Source: a virus
Lineage: Duplodnaviria; Caudoviricetes
Virus record (IMG/VR): IMGVR_UViG_3300031867_004305
Coordinates: 117,043-181,042 of that record
Length of the DNA: 64,000 bases
Direction: 5' to 3' (one strand)
Position numbers and translations under genes: made by a program
Shown: positions 21,471 to 39,100 of the stretch, one piece after another
How positions within the stretch are numbered: position 1 is the stretch's first letter
How the letters are laid out: each line of letters begins with the position of its first letter
Notes under the pieces: model-generated
Database searches by the model: none
Seen by the model: only the letters and a program-made list of their open reading frames with translations
What the model was told of the DNA's origin: nothing

Positions 21471-21619
21471 CGATCCCTAGCTCAGTAGGTCTAGAGCAGC
21501 GGCCTTCACGAAGTACAATCAAGTAGATGGTCTGAAATTACTCAGGCGGGTGACAGGTTCAAATCCTTCCTTCGTGACCAATAAGCCGTGTGTCCTGGGT
21601 TCGAGTCCCAGGGGATCGA
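21471..21619 (+). tRNA. tRNA-Ile(UAU) interrupted in the anticodon by a 74-nt tRNA-like insert (21507-21580)
   Basis: CGATCCC/GGGATCG acceptor, D and T arms intact; GCGGC-CTT[insert]ATAA-GCCGT. Confidence 0.8.
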
Positions 21620-21699: not shown

Positions 21700-22338
21700 A
21701 TGCCATACATTTATAAAATTGTAAATGATATTAATAATAAAATATATGTTGGGAAAACATTGAAAACAGTTCAAGAAAGATGGAAGCAGCATTTATATGA
21801 TTATGATAAAAAAAGAAATGAAAAACGACCTTTATATGATGCTATGTTAAAATATGGTCCTAATCATTTTCATATAGAAGAATTAGAAAATGTTTTAGAC
21901 GCGACTTTATTAAATGAACGCGAAAAATATTGGATTGAATTTTTACATTCTTTTCAAGATGGGTATAACGCCACATGCGGCGGAGATGGGACCCCATATG
22001 CTGATTATGCATTAATCTATGAATTATATACAATTCATAACTTAACATTTGAAAAAATTCAAAATATAACTAATTATGATATGCGTACTATACGTGCTGC
22101 TATTATGAGTTGTGGTATTTCAAAAGAAAATATTGAAAAAATCCGCTTACAAAGATTAAGAAAGCCTGTAATGCAGTTAGATATAAAAACAGAAGAAATT
22201 TTAAAAATTTTTCCTAGTTGTACTGCTGCACAGCGTGAAGTTAGTAATAATCCAAATGATTATTCTGGTACTCATATTTCTGCTGTATGCCGTGGCAAAA
22301 GACGTACTGCCTATGGTTATAAATGGAAATACTTGTAA
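21700..22338 (+). CDS. GIY-YIG homing endonuclease with NUMOD1-like C-terminus
   Basis: YIYKI.N.IN.KIYVGKT...R...H...E...GYN.T.GG; terminal ISAVCRGKRRTAYGYKW. Confidence 0.88.
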   Translation: MPYIYKIVNDINNKIYVGKTLKTVQERWKQHLYDYDKKRNEKRPLYDAMLKYGPNHFHIEELENVLDATLLNEREKYWIEFLHSFQDGYNATCGGDGTPYADYALIYELYTIHNLTFEKIQNITNYDMRTIRAAIMSCGISKENIEKIRLQRLRKPVMQLDIKTEEILKIFPSCTAAQREVSNNPNDYSGTHISAVCRGKRRTAYGYKWKYL

Positions 22339-22409
22339 GCACTAGTGGGAGAATGGTTATCCGGAAGTCTGCAAAACTTCATAAGCCAGTTCAATTCTGG
22401 CCTAGTGCT
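22339..22409 (+). tRNA. tRNA-Cys(GCA), CCA not encoded
   Basis: GAAGT-CTGCAAA-ACTTC; U discriminator. Confidence 0.88.
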
Positions 22410-22429
22410 CTAAAAAGGAGAAAGATTTT

Positions 22430-22688: not shown

Positions 22689-22913
22689 ATTTGACTTCTA
22701 GTAGAAATTATAGTATAATTATTATATAAAAGAAAAGGAGCATTTTTATGAACGTTATTTTTATTTCCCCTGACAATAATCGAGAAACTTTTAAAAATAT
22801 TCATAATTTTGAAGAGAAGAAAGAAGGAGTATCTTTCTATAATAATATAAATGACTATTGGTTCATAAGATATAGTGCTTTCAAGGCTTTTATCCTTTCG
22901 GAGGTAAAGAACA

Positions 22914-23375
22914 ATGACACTTGACGAATGTAGAGTGGAAACTCAAAAGCACATTGAAAAGGTGCGTAAGTATATCCGCTTTTTTACTGATAAGTTAACT
23001 ACTCGTGGCGAAAATCATGATGCTAGCAAATTAGATACTCCAGAAATTGAACTATTTGCCGAGCATACTGAACGTCTAAATGAAATTGAATATGGCTCTG
23101 ATGAATATAAGGCGGAATTAGAAGCTTTGAAGCCCGCTTTGGATCATCATTACGCTGTCAATTCTCACCATCCAGAGCACTGGCCAAATGGTGTGAATGA
23201 TATGTCATTATGGGATATTTGTGAAATGTTTTGCGACTGGAAAGCATCTGCTGAACGAGTACGTGCGGGTAATATTTTAAAATCTATTGAAACAAACGCA
23301 GAGCGTTTTAAAATTGATAATCAATTAAAGCAGATTTTAATAAATACCGCTCGTTTGATGGAGGAACATGAATAA
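22914..23375 (+). CDS. DUF5662-like (HD-related) protein
   Basis: HDASKL...HHY..N.HHPEHW...EMFCDW motifs. Confidence 0.7.
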   Translation: MTLDECRVETQKHIEKVRKYIRFFTDKLTTRGENHDASKLDTPEIELFAEHTERLNEIEYGSDEYKAELEALKPALDHHYAVNSHHPEHWPNGVNDMSLWDICEMFCDWKASAERVRAGNILKSIETNAERFKIDNQLKQILINTARLMEEHE

Positions 23376-24239: not shown

Positions 24240-24821
24240 ATGAGTAATATTTATTTCAGTAGTGACTTGCATTTTTGTCATAACCGCGGTTTTCTTTATG
24301 AGCCACGCGGTTTTTCATCTATCGAAGAACATGACTCTGCCATTATTGAAAACTGGAATAAAATAGTTAAAAATAATGATGTTGTTTTTCTACTTGGTGA
24401 TTTAATGCTTAATGATAATGTAAATGGTATTAAAAAATTAAATAAATTAAATGGCACGATATATTACATACGAGGAAACCATTGCTCAAATGCGCGTTGC
24501 GTCCTATACGAAGAACAAACTAATATGATTCCGCTATGTAATAATTTCTTTAGTAGTTGGGCTTCATTAGAAAAAATCAAAGGATATAATTTGTATTTAT
24601 CTCATTATCCAACTATAATTGGCTCATTAAAAGATATGACGCCATTAAACAAGAGATTAATAAATCTTCATGGTCATCTTCATAGTAAAAATAAATTCTA
24701 TCAAGATATTCCTTTTATGTATAATGTAGCACTTGACGCACATAATAACGCGCCCGTATCATTTGATGAAATTATTTCAGATATTGAAGCAAAAGCAAAT
24801 GAATGTATTGCTATGCTATAA
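24240..24821 (+). CDS. Calcineurin-like metallophosphoesterase
   Basis: SDLHFCH, LGD, GNH, SHYP, HGHLH motifs. Confidence 0.88.
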   Translation: MSNIYFSSDLHFCHNRGFLYEPRGFSSIEEHDSAIIENWNKIVKNNDVVFLLGDLMLNDNVNGIKKLNKLNGTIYYIRGNHCSNARCVLYEEQTNMIPLCNNFFSSWASLEKIKGYNLYLSHYPTIIGSLKDMTPLNKRLINLHGHLHSKNKFYQDIPFMYNVALDAHNNAPVSFDEIISDIEAKANECIAML

Positions 24822-25129
24822 GGAGATAATATGATTTACGAGGGGCCTTATGTACTTATTTTAATTATCCTATTAGGGATAGGCGCTAGTTTATTATTGA
24901 CTGGTTTTATGAATAGTTAATCAAGGAGGAAATATGGGATTACCATTTATTTTTGGGAAAAAGAAAACAGAAGAAACCCCTGATATTACTAATGAAGAAT
25001 TAGAGAAAATATTAAAATCTGCTCCTGTAATATCTTCAAATACAATAAAACCAGAAGTTATAAGTTTAACTACTTCACGTGAATTAAAGTATTTAAAGAA
25101 ACGAATATGGAAATTCTATCATAAATAAT

Positions 25130-25158
25130 TTGACTTTTACTAAAAAATCTGCTATAAT
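25130..25158 (+). promoter_or_regulatory. sigmaA-type promoter of the DUF2828 gene
   Basis: TTGACT-17 bp-TATAAT with TG extension. Confidence 0.85.
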
Positions 25159-25222
25159 AATATTGTAAGAAAGAAACGAGCCCTAGTCCAGGGCTGACCA
25201 AATGAAAAGGAGAAAATAAATT

Positions 25223-26758
25223 ATGAATCGTCTTTACAATGCTATGGCTTCTCAGAACACCTACAAGACTACCGAGAATGGTGCTATCGCACGCACCACG
25301 ACCAGCTCTAAGCTATATGACCTCTTCTCTTTCGGCGCGGCTTACCGTCAGCGTACCGAGAGTGATTGCGTGCTACTATTTAAGGAGGCATATAAGGAAA
25401 GTCCTATGTATGCCCTAAAGTGCCTGTTCTATATCCGCGATATTCGCGGCGGACAGGGTGAGCGTCGTTTCTTCCGCACTTGCCTGCATTGGCTTGCGGA
25501 TTATGACCGCAATGCCGTACTACGCAATCTTGACCAGATTGCTGAGTATGGCCGCTGGGATGACCTATATGCCCTAGTGGGGACTTCTTGTGAACATGAT
25601 GCTCTTTATGCTCTTGGCAAGCAGCTTGCCCTTGATTACAAGACCAAGGGTGCTATTTCCCTTGCCGGTAAGTGGGCAGCTTCAGAGAACGCTTCTTCTG
25701 CCAAGACTAAGCGTTATGGTCGTCTAACTGCTCATACTATGGGTCTAACTTCTCGTCAATATCGCAAGGTGCTTTCTACCCTTCGTGAGCGTATTCGTGT
25801 TCTGGAGCGACTTATGTCCGCAAATCGTTGGAATGAGATTGAATTTGACAAGATTCCTTCTCGTGCTGGCCTAATCTACAAGAACGCTTTTGCACGCCGT
25901 GATATCATCAAGGCGAAGTATGAGTCTTTTGCAAAGGATAAGACTACCAAGGTTAACGCGGCAGCCCTCTATCCTTACGATGTCGTAGCTAAGGCAATTA
26001 AGCTGATGGGCTCTGACAGCTGGTATGGCCGTGGTAATCATGTTGCTCTTGACAATACCGATCGTCTAATGATTAACAAGTATTGGGAGAATCTTGTTGA
26101 TTATCTGACTGGTGCTCCACTAAATGCGGTGGTAGTGGCTGATACAAGCGGAAGTATGTGTTCAGGTGCTAATAGTGTGGCTCCAATTGATGTTGCTGTT
26201 TCTTTGGCTCTATACGCGGCCGAACGTATGCGTGGTCCTTTTGCCAATCATTATATTTCTTTTAGCCGTAAGGCTCGTTTAATCGAGACTACTGGCGTGG
26301 ATTTTTGTGATAAGGTAGATAGGATTGTAAGGACGAATCTATGTGAAAATACGAATTTAGCTTCCGTATTTGACCTTATCCTAAGTACTGCTTGTCACTA
26401 TAATCTATCTCAAAAGGATATGCCAGAAAGCATTATTATTGTAACAGATATGGAAGTAGATTCCGCACAGGGTTATTCTTCTTGGGGACGAGCACCTGAA
26501 TATGGACACGGCGGTAAGGGAATTCAAACCTTTATGGATAAGATGCGTAGTCGTTGGACTGACGCAGGATATAAAATGCCAAAAATTGTATTTTGGAACG
26601 TAAACGCACGAAATAATACAATTTTGGATGATGGCCCTGATGTTACTAATGTCAGCGGTTGCTCACCGGTTCTATTTGAATCTATCCTATCTGGAAAAAG
26701 TTCTTATGATCTTATGATGGATAAGCTAAATAGTAATCGTTATAAGCCAATTCATTAA
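25223..26758 (+). CDS. DUF2828-family TROVE/Ro60-like protein with C-terminal vWA domain
   Basis: TENGA, RDIRGGQGERRFF, EYGRWDDL, KW motifs; MIDAS DTSGSM; TDME; FWNVN. Confidence 0.82.
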   Translation: MNRLYNAMASQNTYKTTENGAIARTTTSSKLYDLFSFGAAYRQRTESDCVLLFKEAYKESPMYALKCLFYIRDIRGGQGERRFFRTCLHWLADYDRNAVLRNLDQIAEYGRWDDLYALVGTSCEHDALYALGKQLALDYKTKGAISLAGKWAASENASSAKTKRYGRLTAHTMGLTSRQYRKVLSTLRERIRVLERLMSANRWNEIEFDKIPSRAGLIYKNAFARRDIIKAKYESFAKDKTTKVNAAALYPYDVVAKAIKLMGSDSWYGRGNHVALDNTDRLMINKYWENLVDYLTGAPLNAVVVADTSGSMCSGANSVAPIDVAVSLALYAAERMRGPFANHYISFSRKARLIETTGVDFCDKVDRIVRTNLCENTNLASVFDLILSTACHYNLSQKDMPESIIIVTDMEVDSAQGYSSWGRAPEYGHGGKGIQTFMDKMRSRWTDAGYKMPKIVFWNVNARNNTILDDGPDVTNVSGCSPVLFESILSGKSSYDLMMDKLNSNRYKPIH

Positions 26759-26781
26759 AAGACGGATTATTCCGTCTTTTT
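26757..26781 (+). terminator. Intrinsic terminator
   Basis: AAAAGACGGA-TTAT-TCCGTCTTTTT. Confidence 0.75.
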
Positions 26782-26798
26782 ATTTAGGATGTGATTCT

Positions 26799-27542
26799 AT
26801 GGGAAGGCCCGCTAAAGATTTAACAAATCAAAGATTTCAACGATTATTAGTAATTAAGCGTGATGGTTCTACAGCTGATGGTCATGCTAAATGGTTATGT
26901 TTATGTAACTGCGGTAATTATATAAGTGTATCATCCAATAGTTTAAAACGCGGTGATACTAAATCTTGTGGATGCTTAAATAAAGATGTAGCAAGAGAAA
27001 AAGGTAGACAATCTTATAAAGATCTCACTAATAAACGTTTTAATAAACTAATTGCTAAAGAATATTTAGGAAGTAATAATAAAGGAAGTGGTTTATGGAG
27101 ATGCGAATGTGATTGTGGAAATAATAATTTTATTACAACGTCGCACCATTTAATTAGCAGCAATACGCAAAGCTGTGGTTGCTTAAAATCAAAAGGAGAA
27201 GCAAATATAAAACAACTACTTATAAATAATAATATTAATTTTATTTCACAATATTACTTTAAAGATTTATATTATGAAAGTAATATACCTGTTCGATTTG
27301 ATTTTTATTTACCCGATTATAACCGATTAATTGAATTTGATGGTATTCAACATTATACTTCTGGCGGTGGATGGAACACCGCTGAATTATTTAAACGCAA
27401 TAAAAAACACGACGAAATTAGAAACCAATATGCCCTTTCCCACAACATTCCTCTCGTTCGCATACCATATTGGGAACGTGATAATATTACTCTTGAAATG
27501 TTATTTAGTGATGAATATTTAGTGAAAGAAGAAGATGAATGA
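26799..27542 (+). CDS. Putative homing endonuclease (Zn-binding repeats + Vsr/DUF559-like nuclease)
   Basis: Two DLT..RF..L...W.C.C.CG...SCGC repeats; RFDFYLP...IEFDGIQH. Confidence 0.75.
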   Translation: MGRPAKDLTNQRFQRLLVIKRDGSTADGHAKWLCLCNCGNYISVSSNSLKRGDTKSCGCLNKDVAREKGRQSYKDLTNKRFNKLIAKEYLGSNNKGSGLWRCECDCGNNNFITTSHHLISSNTQSCGCLKSKGEANIKQLLINNNINFISQYYFKDLYYESNIPVRFDFYLPDYNRLIEFDGIQHYTSGGGWNTAELFKRNKKHDEIRNQYALSHNIPLVRIPYWERDNITLEMLFSDEYLVKEEDE

Positions 27543-27612
27543 AAATTCATCTTCTTTTTTATTGACTAAATATAAAAATTATAGTATAATAATTATAGAA
27601 AGGATGAGGAAT

Positions 27613-27969
27613 ATGAATTATTATATCTATCTTGATGATGTACGCGAAGATGATACTTGGTTTCGGCAACATTTAAATACAGAGCATTGGATTCCTTGCG
27701 TTGTTCGTTCCTATGATGAAGTAATTCATGTTCTCAATCATATGCGAGATTATATGAATGAGAATGAAGTGCTTATTCTTGACCTCGACCACGACCTTGG
27801 CGAAACTGAAGAAGGCTATAATGAACTCGCGCGCACAGGATATGACGTTTGTAAGTGGATTGTTGAAAACGATTTTCAAAATCTTTACTTTCATATACAT
27901 AGTATGAACCCCGTTGGGTCTGCAAATATGCGGCAACTTCTTACTCATTATGGATATAAGGAGATTTAG
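27613..27969 (+). CDS. Cyclic-phosphate-processing receiver domain protein
   Basis: IYLDDVR...LDHDLG...GYDVCKWI...IHSMNPVG signature. Confidence 0.75.
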   Translation: MNYYIYLDDVREDDTWFRQHLNTEHWIPCVVRSYDEVIHVLNHMRDYMNENEVLILDLDHDLGETEEGYNELARTGYDVCKWIVENDFQNLYFHIHSMNPVGSANMRQLLTHYGYKEI

Positions 27970-27970
27970 T

Positions 27971-28189
27971 ATGAAAAATCCTTGGGAAGATTGTACTCAT
28001 TATGATGGCTGGAATGGGTTTGAAGGAGCGGTAGTAAAACATGACCGTGGTATTTGGTCTGATGAAGTGTTTGATAATTGGTTAAGTGAATATTGTGAAC
28101 GTTGCCCATTCTTTGCGAGTGGAGAGGCTTGTGTATATGGAGACAAAGATGTTATGAAAATGATGAAAAACAAATATGAGGAAATTTAA
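27971..28189 (+). CDS. Hypothetical Cys-rich protein
   Basis: ORF in operon context. Confidence 0.5.
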   Translation: MKNPWEDCTHYDGWNGFEGAVVKHDRGIWSDEVFDNWLSEYCERCPFFASGEACVYGDKDVMKMMKNKYEEI

Positions 28190-28397
28190 TATGTGGAAAA
28201 AAGTAAAGGATTGCGAAACTCTTTCAATACAAGCCCTTGCAGCTATGGCACTCGTAGAAAAGAAAAATAATCGTTTAATTACTTGGTCTACTAGTGACGG
28301 ATTAATTCATTTATGCTCTTTTGAAACTTTAGCACAAATCAAAGAAACTGAAATAGAATCCAATACAAAATTTACTCTATGGGAGAAAAAATAAAGT

Positions 28398-29048
28398 ATG
28401 AGAAAGTATGAAAAGATTGATACTCTCTATCAAAGAGACACAACCGGAACTAAAAAGTTGCTTCCGGGAGTATTTCGTGATCCTACCGTAGAATATCTCA
28501 GCGACAATAATTGGATTTGGACTGAAAAGGTTGATGGCACTAATATCCGTGTATGTTGGGATGGCCATACTGTAACCTTTGGCGGCCGCACCGATAATGC
28601 TGCTATTCCCGCAGAACTTGTTACTCGTTTGAATGAGTTGTTCGGTGGAGAAACAAATGCTCAAATTTTTGAACAGGTTTTCGGCGATAAGGAAGTCATT
28701 CTTTTCGGTGAAGGCTATGGTCGCAAGATTCAAAAGGGCGGTGGAAAGTATATTCCCGACGGCGTAGATTTTATTCTTTTTGATGTGCTTATTGGCGACA
28801 ATTATCAAGAACGAGAATGGGTAGAAGAAACTGCCACAATGTTTGGAATTAAAGCTGTTCCTATTGTTGGCACTGGTAGTCTATATGCCGCAGGAGAGTA
28901 TGTAAAAACCCATCCTAATTCTGTAATTGCAGAAGAGCCGCGTGAAATGGAAGGAGTAGTATGTCGTCCTGCAATTGAACTACGCAATCGTCGCGGCGAG
29001 CGTATAATCGTAAAAATCAAATGGGAAGATATGAAGGAGCTAGTATAA
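28398..29048 (+). CDS. ATP-dependent RNA ligase (Rnl2-like nucleotidyltransferase core)
   Basis: Motif I EKVDGTN, III FGEGYG, IIIa FILFDV, IV EGVVCR, V IVKIK. Confidence 0.85.
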   Translation: MRKYEKIDTLYQRDTTGTKKLLPGVFRDPTVEYLSDNNWIWTEKVDGTNIRVCWDGHTVTFGGRTDNAAIPAELVTRLNELFGGETNAQIFEQVFGDKEVILFGEGYGRKIQKGGGKYIPDGVDFILFDVLIGDNYQEREWVEETATMFGIKAVPIVGTGSLYAAGEYVKTHPNSVIAEEPREMEGVVCRPAIELRNRRGERIIVKIKWEDMKELV

Positions 29049-29050
29049 TT

Positions 29051-29260
29051 ATGCTAATACGTTATGAAGTAGAGTTTTGGGATGAAATGGATCATCAAAT
29101 ACGAGCAGAGAAGGGTTTAACAGCAAGCGTCTCTACTCTAGGAGAAGGCGTAGATAAAATTGCTGAATATTATGGTAAAAGTAATATCAGTTTTATTAAA
29201 GTATATGAATGTGAAGATTGTATTTGTGATGAAGAACTAAAAGATTTACTAGAAGATTAG
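29051..29260 (+). CDS. Hypothetical protein
   Basis: ORF with RBS. Confidence 0.5.
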   Translation: MLIRYEVEFWDEMDHQIRAEKGLTASVSTLGEGVDKIAEYYGKSNISFIKVYECEDCICDEELKDLLED

Positions 29261-29263
29261 TAT

Positions 29264-29292
29264 TTGACTTTTATTAAAAATTCTGATATAAT
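29264..29292 (+). promoter_or_regulatory. sigmaA-type promoter for tRNA-Met and the large ncRNA
   Basis: TTGACT-17 bp-TATAAT. Confidence 0.85.
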
Positions 29293-29328: not shown

Positions 29329-29406
29329 TGCGGGATCGCCAAGTTGGTTAAGGCACGAGCCTCATAAACTCGTTACGCGTGGGTCCGAGTCCCACTCCCG
29401 CAACCA
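29329..29406 (+). tRNA. tRNA-Met(CAU)
   Basis: TGCGGGA/TCCCGCA acceptor; CTCATAA loop; ACCA. Confidence 0.85.
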
Positions 29407-30506: not shown

Positions 30507-31451
30507 ATGGCAGAAAATAAATTTACAGCCACAGATTTAAAAGAAATGCAAAACTGGTCGTTAGAGCATAAGATTGGAGTAACTCAAACGCGTATTTGCG
30601 AATTTGGATTACATTATGATAATCAAGTATTCGTAGCCTTTAGTGGCGGAAAAGATAGTACAGTATTATTAGATTTAGCTAGACGTTGTATTCCAGATGT
30701 ACCAGCAGTTTTTATTGATACTGGACTTGAATATCCAGAAGTAAAGCAATTCGTTAAATCTCATGAAAATGTAGAAATTATTCGGCCTAAAAAAACTTTT
30801 AGACAAGTTATTGAAGAATTTGGATACCCTATTGTAAGCAAGAAAATTGCCGGTTATGTAGCAACAGCAAAACGTAATCCAGATTCTGCTCGTGCAAAAT
30901 TCCTTAGTGGAGAGTATGATAGTAAAATTTTTGGGTTTGGAGATGGAAAATGGAATTTTCTTGTAGATGCTCCTTTTAAGGTAAGTGACTATTGTTGCGA
31001 TGTAATGAAAAAACAACCTAATCATCACTATTCAAAAGAAACGGGTCGTTATCCTATTTTAGGAACTTTAGCTTGTGAATCTATCGCTCGTCGTAATGAA
31101 TGGATGCGTAGCGGATGTAATTTATTTGATAGTAAGAAACCCACTTGTAAACCTTTATCTTTCTGGACTGATAATGACATTTTTGAATATATCAAACGCT
31201 TTGATGTACCTTATTGTTCTTTGTATGGAGATATCGTGAAAGATAAAAAGGGAAATTGGACTACTACAGGAATTAATAGAACAGGTTGTATTTTCTGTGG
31301 CTTCGGCTGTCATCGTGAGAAGTGCCCAAATAGATTCCAACAATTAAAAGAAACTCATCCAAAAATTTGGGAATACTGTATGCGACCTTGGGATGAAGGT
31401 GGACTTGGATTGCGTGAAGTTTTAGAATATATAAATGTACCAGTTGAATAA
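30507..31451 (+). CDS. PAPS-reductase-family (PP-loop) protein
   Basis: FSGGKDSTVL; DTGLEYPE; CC..MKK; RTGCIFC. Confidence 0.85.
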   Translation: MAENKFTATDLKEMQNWSLEHKIGVTQTRICEFGLHYDNQVFVAFSGGKDSTVLLDLARRCIPDVPAVFIDTGLEYPEVKQFVKSHENVEIIRPKKTFRQVIEEFGYPIVSKKIAGYVATAKRNPDSARAKFLSGEYDSKIFGFGDGKWNFLVDAPFKVSDYCCDVMKKQPNHHYSKETGRYPILGTLACESIARRNEWMRSGCNLFDSKKPTCKPLSFWTDNDIFEYIKRFDVPYCSLYGDIVKDKKGNWTTTGINRTGCIFCGFGCHREKCPNRFQQLKETHPKIWEYCMRPWDEGGLGLREVLEYINVPVE

Positions 31452-32544: not shown

Positions 32545-32679
32545 CCACGCGTGGTGCAAATGGCGAGACACAGCGGACTTACGTAGGCCCAGTGGCTTGT
32601 TGGAGAGCAACACTCCTTCCTACGACCAAAATCCGCGACGCAAGATACATTGCTGGTTCAAATCCAGTCGCGTGGACCA
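32545..32679 (+). tRNA. tRNA-Leu(UAA) interrupted in the anticodon by a 47-nt tRNA-minihelix-like insert (32582-32628)
   Basis: CCACGCG/CGCGTGG-ACCA; GCGGA-CTTA[insert]AAA-TCCGC; long variable region; T arm intact. Confidence 0.8.
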
Positions 32680-32837: not shown

Positions 32838-33794
32838 ATGGAAACTTACACAAATATTTGGTTAGATATTTCAGAAGAACAATGGAGAAAAATTATTTCT
32901 ACTAGTCTAACTCGTGCAGAGGTCGCACGCAAAGTTAATCGTTGTCCCAATTCAAGTTTTAATGAGCGTTTAAAAAAATATTGTGATGAACATAATATCT
33001 CTATTGAACATTTTACAATTAATGAAAATGGCAATAAAGAGAAATATCAACTTGAAGAAATTCTAGTAGAAAACTCTCCTGCTTCGAGAAAAACATTAAG
33101 AGACTATTTAGCAAAATATAACATTCTAGAATATAAATGTGCTATTTGCGGGAATGTTGGAGAATGGAATGGAGTTTCTTTAACTTTACAAATAGACCAT
33201 ATTAATGGAATAAATAATGATAATAGAAAAGAAAATCTTCGTTGGTTATGTCCAAATTGTCATTCTCAAACTGACACGTTTACTGGGAAAAATAAAACTA
33301 AAAAAGAAGTTGTTAATTTCACAGTAGAAGAAGCGATTAAAGCATTAAGACAAACTGAAAATGTAAATCAAGCAACTAAATTAATCGGTTGTGCGCAAGG
33401 TGGAGCAAATTGGATTAGAGTAAATGATATTAAGAAAGAATATGGAATTGTTCAATCTGGAGATTTAAAAAAAGAAGAAAAATATAAGTTTGAAGAAAAT
33501 CATATTAATGTAAAACCAATGAACTTTATTAAATTATGTAAAAAGTGCGGTCGTCCATTATCGACAAAAGATGCTGAGTATTGTCAAACTTGTATTCACG
33601 AATTTCAACGAAAATGTGAATGGCCTTCCCGCGAAGAACTTAAAAAATTAATCCGTTCCACACCTTTTTTACAAATAGGTAAAAAATATAATGTAAGTGA
33701 TAACGCTGTAAGAAAATGGTGTTTAAATTACGGTTTACCATCTAAAAAAAAGGAAATCAAAGCAATTTCAGATGAAGAGTGGGCTACCATTTGA
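32838..33794 (+). CDS. HNH homing endonuclease
   Basis: CAIC...LQIDHING...DNRKENLRWLCPNCH. Confidence 0.88.
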   Translation: METYTNIWLDISEEQWRKIISTSLTRAEVARKVNRCPNSSFNERLKKYCDEHNISIEHFTINENGNKEKYQLEEILVENSPASRKTLRDYLAKYNILEYKCAICGNVGEWNGVSLTLQIDHINGINNDNRKENLRWLCPNCHSQTDTFTGKNKTKKEVVNFTVEEAIKALRQTENVNQATKLIGCAQGGANWIRVNDIKKEYGIVQSGDLKKEEKYKFEENHINVKPMNFIKLCKKCGRPLSTKDAEYCQTCIHEFQRKCEWPSREELKKLIRSTPFLQIGKKYNVSDNAVRKWCLNYGLPSKKKEIKAISDEEWATI

Positions 33795-38970: not shown

Positions 38971-39087
38971 TAGGCACATGCAGCAACTTACATAGATAAT
39001 CTATGAGTCATCGGTTCGATTCCGATTATGCAATCCAAAGCTTTGCGTATCGCCCAGATGGTAGGGCAATAGAAACAAGGTGCCTAG
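38971..39087 (+). ncRNA. CAGCAA-family RNA 7: permuted tRNA mimic (YrlA-like)
   Basis: TAGGCAC-ATGCAGCAA; ATCGG-TTCGATT-CCGAT; TATGCAA-TCCAAAGCT-TTGCGTA; GCCC-AGATGGTA-GGGC; GTGCCTAG. Confidence 0.75.
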
Positions 39088-39100
39088 ATGAAAGGTTTTT

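Follow-up and report, generated by a model that had tools for sequence, protein, structure and literature searches.

Predicted RNA repair proteins encoded in a phage tRNA island

The DNA analysed here, called the window, is a stretch of 64,000 nucleotides (nt) that corresponds to bases 117043-181042 of a 181-kb phage record in IMG/VR (IMGVR_UViG_3300031867_004305), rated complete by CheckV. The subject is a set of genes encoding a calcineurin-type metallophosphoesterase, a Ro60/TROVE-like protein, a cyclic-phosphate processing receiver (cREC) domain protein and an Rnl2-like RNA ligase. The set spans positions 24240-29260 of the window, to which all coordinates refer unless another record is named, and lies entirely on the + strand. 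It is located in a tRNA island that also holds two split tRNAs; with ARAGORN and Rfam 19-20 tRNA genes were detected between 17.3 and 40.2 kb, and the cassette is flanked by tRNA-Cys (22339-22410) and tRNA-Met (29329-29406). An earlier note, made from the letters of the window, had described an RNA healing and sealing set embedded in the tRNA island, and the flanking tRNA genes confirm the embedding. The proteins of the set, and a kinase encoded elsewhere in the same genome (G000), are the following (lengths in amino acids, aa; ORF, open reading frame).

24240-24821 (+): calcineurin-type metallophosphoesterase, about 193 aa, phrog_547; ORF readable from 24165
25223-26758 (+): ring protein of Ro60/TROVE fold with a vWA/MIDAS domain (DUF2828 + DUF7788), 511 aa; Pfam, PHROG and Foldseek
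27535-27969 (+): cREC domain protein; PF20274, 71.8 bits against a threshold of 27, E 7.5e-20
28398-29048 (+): stand-alone Rnl2-like ATP-dependent RNA ligase, 216 aa; predicted lysine nucleophile K44
G000:C1:89729-90688, about 51 kb upstream and outside the window: polynucleotide kinase-HD protein (Pnk-HD), 319 aa (AAA_33 + HD phosphohydrolase)

The ligase matches PF09414 (E 1.2e-15, 58.5 bits against a gathering threshold of 27 in the window; 58.8 bits in the genome scan). Its best match in sequence and in structure is T4 Rnl2 (gp24.1), with whose equivalents its motifs I (KVDGTN), III (FGEGYG), IIIa (FILFDV), IV (EGVVCRP) and V (IVKIK) line up. In 70 diverse homologues K44, E105, E185, G186 and K206 are invariant and F128, D129 and K208 are at least 90% conserved. 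A structure model, with a predicted local distance difference test score (pLDDT) of 96, indicates a nucleotidyl-transferase fold: the top PDB match in Foldseek was the nucleotidyl-transferase domain of T4 Rnl2 (1s68/2hvr, E about 3e-11), and further matches were Naegleria Rnl5 (NgrRnl), REL1 and archaeal Rnl3, with a probability of 1.0. Unlike T4 Rnl2, the window ligase ends 8 residues past motif V with no appended domain, and it scores far under the cut-off of TIGR02307, the Rnl2 equivalog (25.3 bits against 197.15). A Pfam scan gave no match in it to the N-terminal OB domain of the Rnl5/DraRnl type (PF21189). An exhaustive homologue search yielded 2631 cluster representatives, and the best 150 have, with few exceptions, lengths of 205-225 aa; the short ligase is therefore the normal architecture and not a truncation. 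Homologues annotated 'RNA ligase' are found in crAss-like phages, Streptomyces phages, Campylobacter phages and 15 Lak megaphage records. To our knowledge no RNA ligase family that has been characterised does without an additional domain. The present family is very large, uncharacterised and nucleotidyl-transferase-only, with thousands of metagenome members, and its mode of substrate binding is worth bench work.

About 1200 homologues of the phosphoesterase, of 185-193 aa, begin at the residue corresponding to M26, that is at base 24240. The protein matches phrog_547 'phosphoesterase' (E 6e-47) and phrog_1649 (E 2e-6). No Pfam match was obtained for the protein itself at E up to 0.01, and scanning the genome with Metallophos gave none at E up to 1; most of its homologues (50-87% identity) carry PF12850/PF00149. 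Since phmmer against PDB sequences returned nothing for the phosphoesterase or for the TROVE-like protein, both identities rest on the Pfam matches of homologues, on motifs and on the fold search. The phosphoesterase displays the metal-binding motifs SDLH, GDL, GNH, SHYP and GHLH, and G53, D54, G79, N80, H81, H122, G145, H146 and H148 are at least 90% conserved, the DxH block falling below 90% in that alignment, probably from truncated rows. It is a candidate healer of ends that carry a 3'-phosphate or a 2',3'-cyclic phosphate. In the cREC protein the residues of the DxDHDxG and IHSxN blocks (D57, D59, H60, D61, G63, H96, S97 and N99) reach 85% conservation or more across 25 relatives. It is a predicted phosphoesterase for 2',3'-cyclic ends, the hydrolysis of such ends by cREC being a prediction made by Iyer et al. 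(2021; PMC7824862). A metagenome homologue of the phosphoesterase, P0345 (153 aa), has Pfam matches to both cREC (PF20274) and Metallophos. It is either a fused protein or the product of reading through two neighbouring genes, and it hints that cREC and phosphoesterase work together.

That no polynucleotide kinase is recognisable in the window had been taken to fit substrates already bearing a 5'-phosphate. No convincing kinase is indeed present there. However, the genome encodes Pnk-HD, so this argument about the substrates fails. Pnk-HD matches AAA_33 (63 bits) plus HD in Pfam and phrog_505 'polynucleotide kinase', and its kinase domain aligns, P-loop included, with the Clostridium thermocellum Pnkp kinase (PDB 4gp7 and related, E 7e-9). 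The protein is kept in four other genomes (G004, G005, G006 and G008) at 40-42% identity. The phage can therefore presumably handle 5'-OH ends as well, and the ends would need no prior 5'-phosphate. Thus, the genome encodes candidates for every step of a kinase, phosphatase and ATP-ligase route.

The TROVE-like protein matches DUF7788 (E 2.6e-34) and DUF2828 (E 1.7e-30), the only Pfam matches at E up to 0.01, at which the Pfam TROVE domain (PF05731) was not found, and it matches phrog_850 'RNA-binding protein' (E 5e-115). Its AlphaFold model is of moderate confidence (pLDDT 78.7). Full-length PDB matches of the model in Foldseek were Ro60 of Thermus phage phiLo (9kop, 9l5y), Deinococcus Rsr (2nvo) and Xenopus Ro60 (1yvr, 2i91), with template modelling scores of 0.38-0.56 and a probability of 1.0. 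As modelled, the protein consists of a HEAT-repeat ring and a vWA domain with a MIDAS, and the MIDAS motif DTSGSM is invariant in 40 homologues. A literature search on the function of DUF2828 returned nothing relevant. One RNA in the island may be its partner.

38971-39089 (+): YrlA-like (tRNA-like Y RNA) candidate; Rfam RF02553, 30.9 bits, E 0.0043, under the gathering score of 69

The protein was compared with the Ro60-Y RNA particles of the Salmonella rsr-yrlBA-rtcBA operon, Deinococcus Rsr and Thermus phage phiLo Ro60 (PMC12135203; PMC4201824; PMC7790460). Common to these and the window are the ring-plus-vWA fold with MIDAS, an adjoining RNA ligase and, in the window as a candidate below threshold, a tRNA-like small RNA nearby. 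In contrast to them, the window protein has no Pfam TROVE match, the neighbouring ligase is ATP-dependent and not RtcB, and the RNA partners are candidates.

The four family assignments of the earlier note are thus borne out by Pfam and PHROG profiles (for the phosphoesterase through PHROG and homologues), by motifs and by fold matches, the ligase and TROVE-like models matching Rnl2 and Ro60. This family, fold and motif evidence for each protein also upholds its general description as an RNA healing and sealing set.

Conservation of the cassette and its proposed role in RNA repair

From cREC through the ligase to a 69-aa ORF 3' of it the genes are packed in an operon-like manner, with gaps of 1-3 nt and one promoter-like site ahead of them. 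Four such sites, TTGACT-17-TATAAT with 11 of 12 consensus positions, were found on the + strand (22691-22719, 25130-25158, 27562-27590 and 29264-29292). Two of them precede genes of the cassette.

25130-25158 (+): promoter-like site, TTGACT-17-TATAAT, 11/12, ahead of the TROVE-like gene; consensus match only
27562-27590 (+): promoter-like site, TTGACT-17-TATAAT, 11/12, ahead of the cREC-to-ligase string; consensus match only

The position of the latter, within the 5' part of the long cREC ORF, suggests M24 or M27 (27604 or 27613) as the start of the protein. The site at 29264-29292 precedes tRNA-Met. These sites are probably the standard promoter of the phage or of its host and probably divide the island into short transcription units. 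A stretch of about 40 nt around the site at 29264-29292 is repeated at several other places in the genome.

Conservation was followed in 17 loci collected through the ligase and in 80 IMG/VR loci collected through the TROVE protein. The former repeatedly show the gene order TROVE-(endonuclease)-cREC-ligase-69-aa ORF, with the phosphoesterase gene upstream in some of them only. In the latter a tight TROVE-cREC-ligase triad with cREC in the middle is present in 14 of the 80, where the TROVE protein is 57-97% identical to that of the window. Around more distant TROVE genes (52-56% identity) the minimal ligase was not found within 10 kb, and cREC, phosphoesterase and kinase occur at varying distances. 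In three loci (L104:6193-8193, L138:17932-19506 and L165:17497-18572) a Pnk-like kinase and a phosphoesterase are immediate neighbours, unlike in the window genome. In relatives of 90-106 kb a 60% identical ligase has a small number of intact tRNAs, an integrase and genes for replication as neighbours, and neither cREC nor TROVE. The varying gene content and distances imply that the set is modular.

The function proposed below has its model in Pnkp and Rnl1 of T4, a phage heal-and-seal pair that repairs tRNA-Lys cleaved by PrrC, in which a kinase, a 3' phosphatase and an ATP-dependent ligase act on anticodon-loop breaks. Compared with that pair, the window ligase is Rnl2-like, the phosphatases are of the metallophosphoesterase, HD and cREC types and not HAD, and the genes are dispersed. 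The Pnkp of C. thermocellum (Pnkp-Hen1 system), with which the kinase domain of Pnk-HD aligns, also has a calcineurin-type phosphoesterase as end healer, whereas the window domains are separate proteins and the ligase belongs to another family. Matches to the whole repertoire come from the survey of jumbo and other large phages by Iyer, Anantharaman, Krishnan, Burroughs and Aravind (2021; PMC7824862), which holds the same Rnl2-type ligase, cRec genes in ligase operons, ROT/TROVE paired with a tRNA-like RNA, polynucleotide kinase, and phosphatases of the calcineurin-like and HD kinds. The linkage of cRec to RNA ligases, ROT/TROVE, kinases and both kinds of phosphatase in large phages was read there as RNA repair, and the parts as counter-defence against RNase effectors (PMC7824862). 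The window genome differs from that survey in its size of 181 kb, which is under the jumbo cut-off, in a ligase that is a bare nucleotidyl-transferase domain, in a TROVE protein of the DUF2828/DUF7788 branch, in a kinase that is HD-fused and unlinked, and in the split tRNAs of its island, a topic outside that survey.

As parts and linkage match this repertoire, the set is read as a counter-defence heal-and-seal kit. We regard it as reasonably probable that the genes constitute a modular phage kit for RNA end healing and end sealing, placed in the tRNA island, with the sealing of tRNA exons as a possible second use. Its main job would most likely be to keep phage and host tRNAs intact against host anticodon nucleases during infection. 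The activities and substrates of all enzymes in this scheme are those we infer from family, fold and motif. The 216-aa ligase would be adenylylated at K44 and join 3'-OH to 5'-phosphate RNA ends. Ends left by metal-independent RNases (2',3'-cyclic phosphate and 5'-OH) would first be made ligatable: cREC and the metallophosphoesterase would deal with the cyclic or 3' phosphate by opening and removing it, and the unlinked Pnk-HD would phosphorylate the 5'-OH, its HD domain possibly also cleaning 3' ends. The Ro60-like ring would bind damaged or misfolded RNA or recruit host enzymes, and would probably carry tRNA-like Y RNAs of the phage. The cassette would then add one more case to the RNA-repair kits with which large phages counter host RNases, a kind of toolkit that has already been catalogued.

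Several points weigh against this reading. The phosphoesterase is absent from several close relatives, and the set behaves as loosely linked modules and not as one obligate system. The kinase is encoded about 51 kb away, so that kinase, phosphatase and ligase do not form one operon. The C-terminal domain of T4 Rnl2 is required for step 2 of nick sealing, and the window ligase lacks it. Moreover, Rnl2-type enzymes favour duplex nicks over broken loops. As to exon sealing, in G009, a complete 92-kb relative, the ligase adjoins intact tRNAs and no tRNA was found to be split, and the co-occurrence of ligase and split tRNAs described below has no discriminating power, since 13 of 13 complete comparison genomes have such a ligase. 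Finally, a characterised phage Ro60, that of phiLo, binds phage Y-like RNAs and partners host PNPase, not a ligase (PMC12135203).

As a published phage Ro60 acts with host PNPase, the ring protein may do surveillance instead of repair. It could thus form with Y RNA a particle for RNA surveillance or for hijacking a host exonuclease, as in phiLo, the ligase, cREC and phosphoesterase being unrelated neighbours in an accessory arm. The best structural match to the phiLo protein, which binds Y-like RNAs and host PNPase (PMC12135203), agrees with this, as do the YrlA-like candidate at 38971-39089, the promoter-like site that the TROVE gene has of its own and the TROVE loci at 52-56% identity, where the minimal ligase is not within 10 kb. 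This alternative is nevertheless unlikely: TROVE, cREC and ligase have stayed adjacent in the 14 loci with 57-97% TROVE identity despite endonuclease insertions, and the linkage of cREC with RNA ligases is recurrent in phages and in cells (PMC7824862).

Split tRNAs and the ligase

The two split tRNA genes of the island are the sole decoders of AUA and UUA in the genome. Both have their insert at the same position in the anticodon loop, and both inserts end in ACCA.

21471-21619 (+): split tRNA-Ile(UAU) with a 74-nt tRNA-shaped insert ending ACCA; ARAGORN with introns allowed; candidate ligase substrate
32545-32679 (+): split tRNA-Leu(UAA) with a 47-nt insert ending ACCA; ARAGORN with introns allowed; candidate ligase substrate

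The split design of tRNA-Ile(UAU) recurs in 6 other contigs. In the scan of the genome neither RtcB nor a second PF09414 ligase was found; a search for Rnl1, which had no working positive control, also returned nothing, and no CCA-adding enzyme was found in the genome. As the only RNA ligase found in the genome, the cassette ligase would be the obvious candidate for joining the exons of both split tRNAs after excision of their inserts, and it is the only phage-encoded candidate for splicing found there. Interrupted phage tRNAs were first reported in Lak megaphages, in Lak-C1, whose 'enigmatic' tRNA introns were described by Devoto et al. (2019; PMC6784885), a paper that names no splicing enzymes. 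As in the window, Lak tRNAs are interrupted by inserts, one of which is tRNA-like (PMC6784885). Lak-C1 encodes a homologue of the ligase that is 34% identical and 281 aa long, compared with 216 aa in the window, and that is not beside tRNAs in the 12.7 kb examined. A literature search for enzymes splicing phage tRNA introns gave nothing relevant.

Among near-complete genomes with a CCA-ended split tRNA a PF09414 ligase is carried by 10 of 10, the split tRNAs of distant loci having been called with ARAGORN and a CCA filter. The minimal ligase type is found in four of these (G000, G005, G006 and G008), and the remaining six (G004 and G014-G018) have instead an OB-fused ligase of 415-456 aa, the N-terminal OB domain (PF21189) being present in those of G004, G014 and G017. 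A ligase of the PF09414 family was equally found in 21 of the 24 records of the comparison set, including 13 of its 13 complete genomes, and the co-occurrence is therefore discounted as a test. The proposal of the earlier note that the module also splices the split tRNAs is thus neither refuted nor shown: that no split-tRNA phage without a PF09414 ligase was found speaks for it, but with the ligase universal in the comparison set the test is weak.

Two observations on these ligases stand apart. Weak PF09414 matches in ORFs of 440-460 aa were considered as possible DNA ligases, which was ruled out, the proteins being OB plus RNA ligase. The ligase of G004 (L039:17094-19454 = G004:C1:47093-49453) consists of an OB and a nucleotidyl-transferase domain interrupted by a Hint/LAGLIDADG intein, and near it lie an RlaP nucleotidyl-transferase and a Metallophos protein.

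A possible route for the splicing starts from the tRNA-shaped, CCA-ended inserts, which ordinary tRNA end-processing enzymes might excise from the anticodon loop, after which the phage ligase might rejoin the exons. That exons are sealed in such a protein-only bacterial tRNA splicing by the 216-aa domain alone, or with help from the products of the small conserved ORFs beside it or from the Ro60-like ring, is a tentative proposal, which we hold with low confidence. If true, this route would account for the removal of the 'enigmatic' tRNA introns of phages, of which the Lak megaphages gave the first examples. With a single ligase found and the AUA and UUA decoders split, the genome offers a concrete and cheap in vitro test of phage tRNA intron splicing.

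A stronger version, in which the set is a dedicated splicing machine that mainly matures split tRNAs and in which damage repair is secondary or absent, seems improbable. Host RNase P and a 3' end-processing nuclease would excise the insert and leave 3'-OH and 5'-phosphate ends, and the ligase would seal the anticodon loop. The ACCA-ended inserts at one and the same loop position in both split tRNAs favour it, as do the single ligase found, the 10 of 10 split-tRNA genomes and the Lak-C1 homologue. So does the split tRNA-Leu, which has an identical copy in G005, though the ligases of the window genome and G005 are 81% and their TROVE proteins 58% identical. However, ends of this kind would need no Pnk-HD, cREC or phosphoesterase. 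The split tRNAs also vary by genome while the cassette is constant: Glu and Leu are split in G005, where Ile is whole; two others are split in G008, where Ile and Leu are whole; three are split in G006 and Ile in G004. Glu, split in G008, is whole in the window genome. The ligase is universal in the comparison set, and G009 has it without a split tRNA; four records similar to G009, checked to within 10 kb of the ligase, yielded none either. The ligase of G009 together with the six split-tRNA phages that have the other ligase type indicates that the ligase is not dedicated to splicing.

Least probable is a role of the ligase in metabolism other than that of tRNA, for instance on RNA-containing replication nicks or on the large RNAs of the island, with the healing enzymes acting on nucleotides or signalling molecules (cyclic nucleotides, ADP-ribose derivatives): in the relatives of 90-106 kb the ligase does adjoin integrase, AAA_24, DnaB-like helicase and beta-CASP genes in the absence of cREC and TROVE, cRec has also been proposed to process cyclic ADP-ribose (PMC7824862), and ROOL and other large RNAs are near, but even in those relatives the ligase is within 6 kb of a tRNA cluster, its fold and motifs are those of RNA ligases and not DNA ligases, and the Pnk domain is of the RNA-repair Pnkp type.

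Some further features concern the inserts themselves. The split tRNA-Ile is immediately followed by a GIY-YIG/NUMOD1 homing endonuclease gene (21700-22338, +), and the tRNA-Leu pair by an HNH endonuclease gene (32838-33794, +). Possibly the inserts spread along with these nucleases, or they may protect the sites that the nucleases target. In G006 the insert (G006:C1:91293-91369, - strand) of a split tRNA-Ile (91253-91404) is itself called a tRNA by plain ARAGORN, with the anticodon CTA ('Pyl'); judged from this call, the intron may double as an amber-suppressor-like tRNA.

Small ORFs and neighbouring genes

The remaining genes of the cassette are a homing-endonuclease-like gene and four small ORFs, and a large RNA lies further downstream in the island.

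24934-25128 (+): short conserved ORF (64 aa) that separates the phosphoesterase gene from TROVE; matched by tblastn in L013, L014, L017 and L019
26799-27542 (+): homing-endonuclease-like gene, 247 aa; PHROG homing/HNH endonuclease families, E 4e-41 to 2e-13
27971-28189 (+): small Cys-rich ORF, 72 aa, 1 nt past the cREC stop codon; from the sequence
28191-28394 (+): small ORF, 67 aa, closely flanked on both sides; L009 and L037 have related ORFs
29051-29260 (+): small ORF, 69 aa, 3' of the ligase; tblastn matches in L009-L012, L014, L015, L017, L025 and L037
34610-35188 (+): ROOL RNA, full-length, RF03087, 307.6 bits, inside the tRNA island

The homing-endonuclease-like gene, which stands between TROVE and cREC, is absent in L015 and placed elsewhere in L019 and L025; it appears to be a mobile insert outside the repair function. 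None of ten proteins scored above cut-off in NCBIfam, and the 5.2-kb region had no megablast match among deposited phages. The 64-aa ORF has no family match in Pfam, PHROG or NCBIfam, and the 67-aa ORF none in Pfam or PHROG. For the 72-aa ORF nothing was found in PHROG or the protein atlas, and its sole Pfam signal is a weak CCCH (E 0.0046). The 69-aa ORF, with no match in Pfam, PHROG or the protein atlas, comes after the ligase in most relatives, and its product is a possible partner of the ligase. The idea that this ORF is a C-terminal domain of Rnl2 detached by a frameshift was ruled out: the ligase stops cleanly, its homologues are equally long, and in L014 the 69-aa ORF stands upstream of the ligase.

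Besides ROOL, Rfam placed other large RNAs near the cassette. A gene for a DUF5662 protein (22914-23375, +, E 1e-35) just upstream of the cassette is kept in nearly all relatives. Downstream of the ligase a PAPS-reductase/PP-loop-like gene (30507-31451, +, PF01507, E 4e-22) is 89-96% identical in four relatives, and its product may be an enzyme that modifies tRNA or another nucleic acid.

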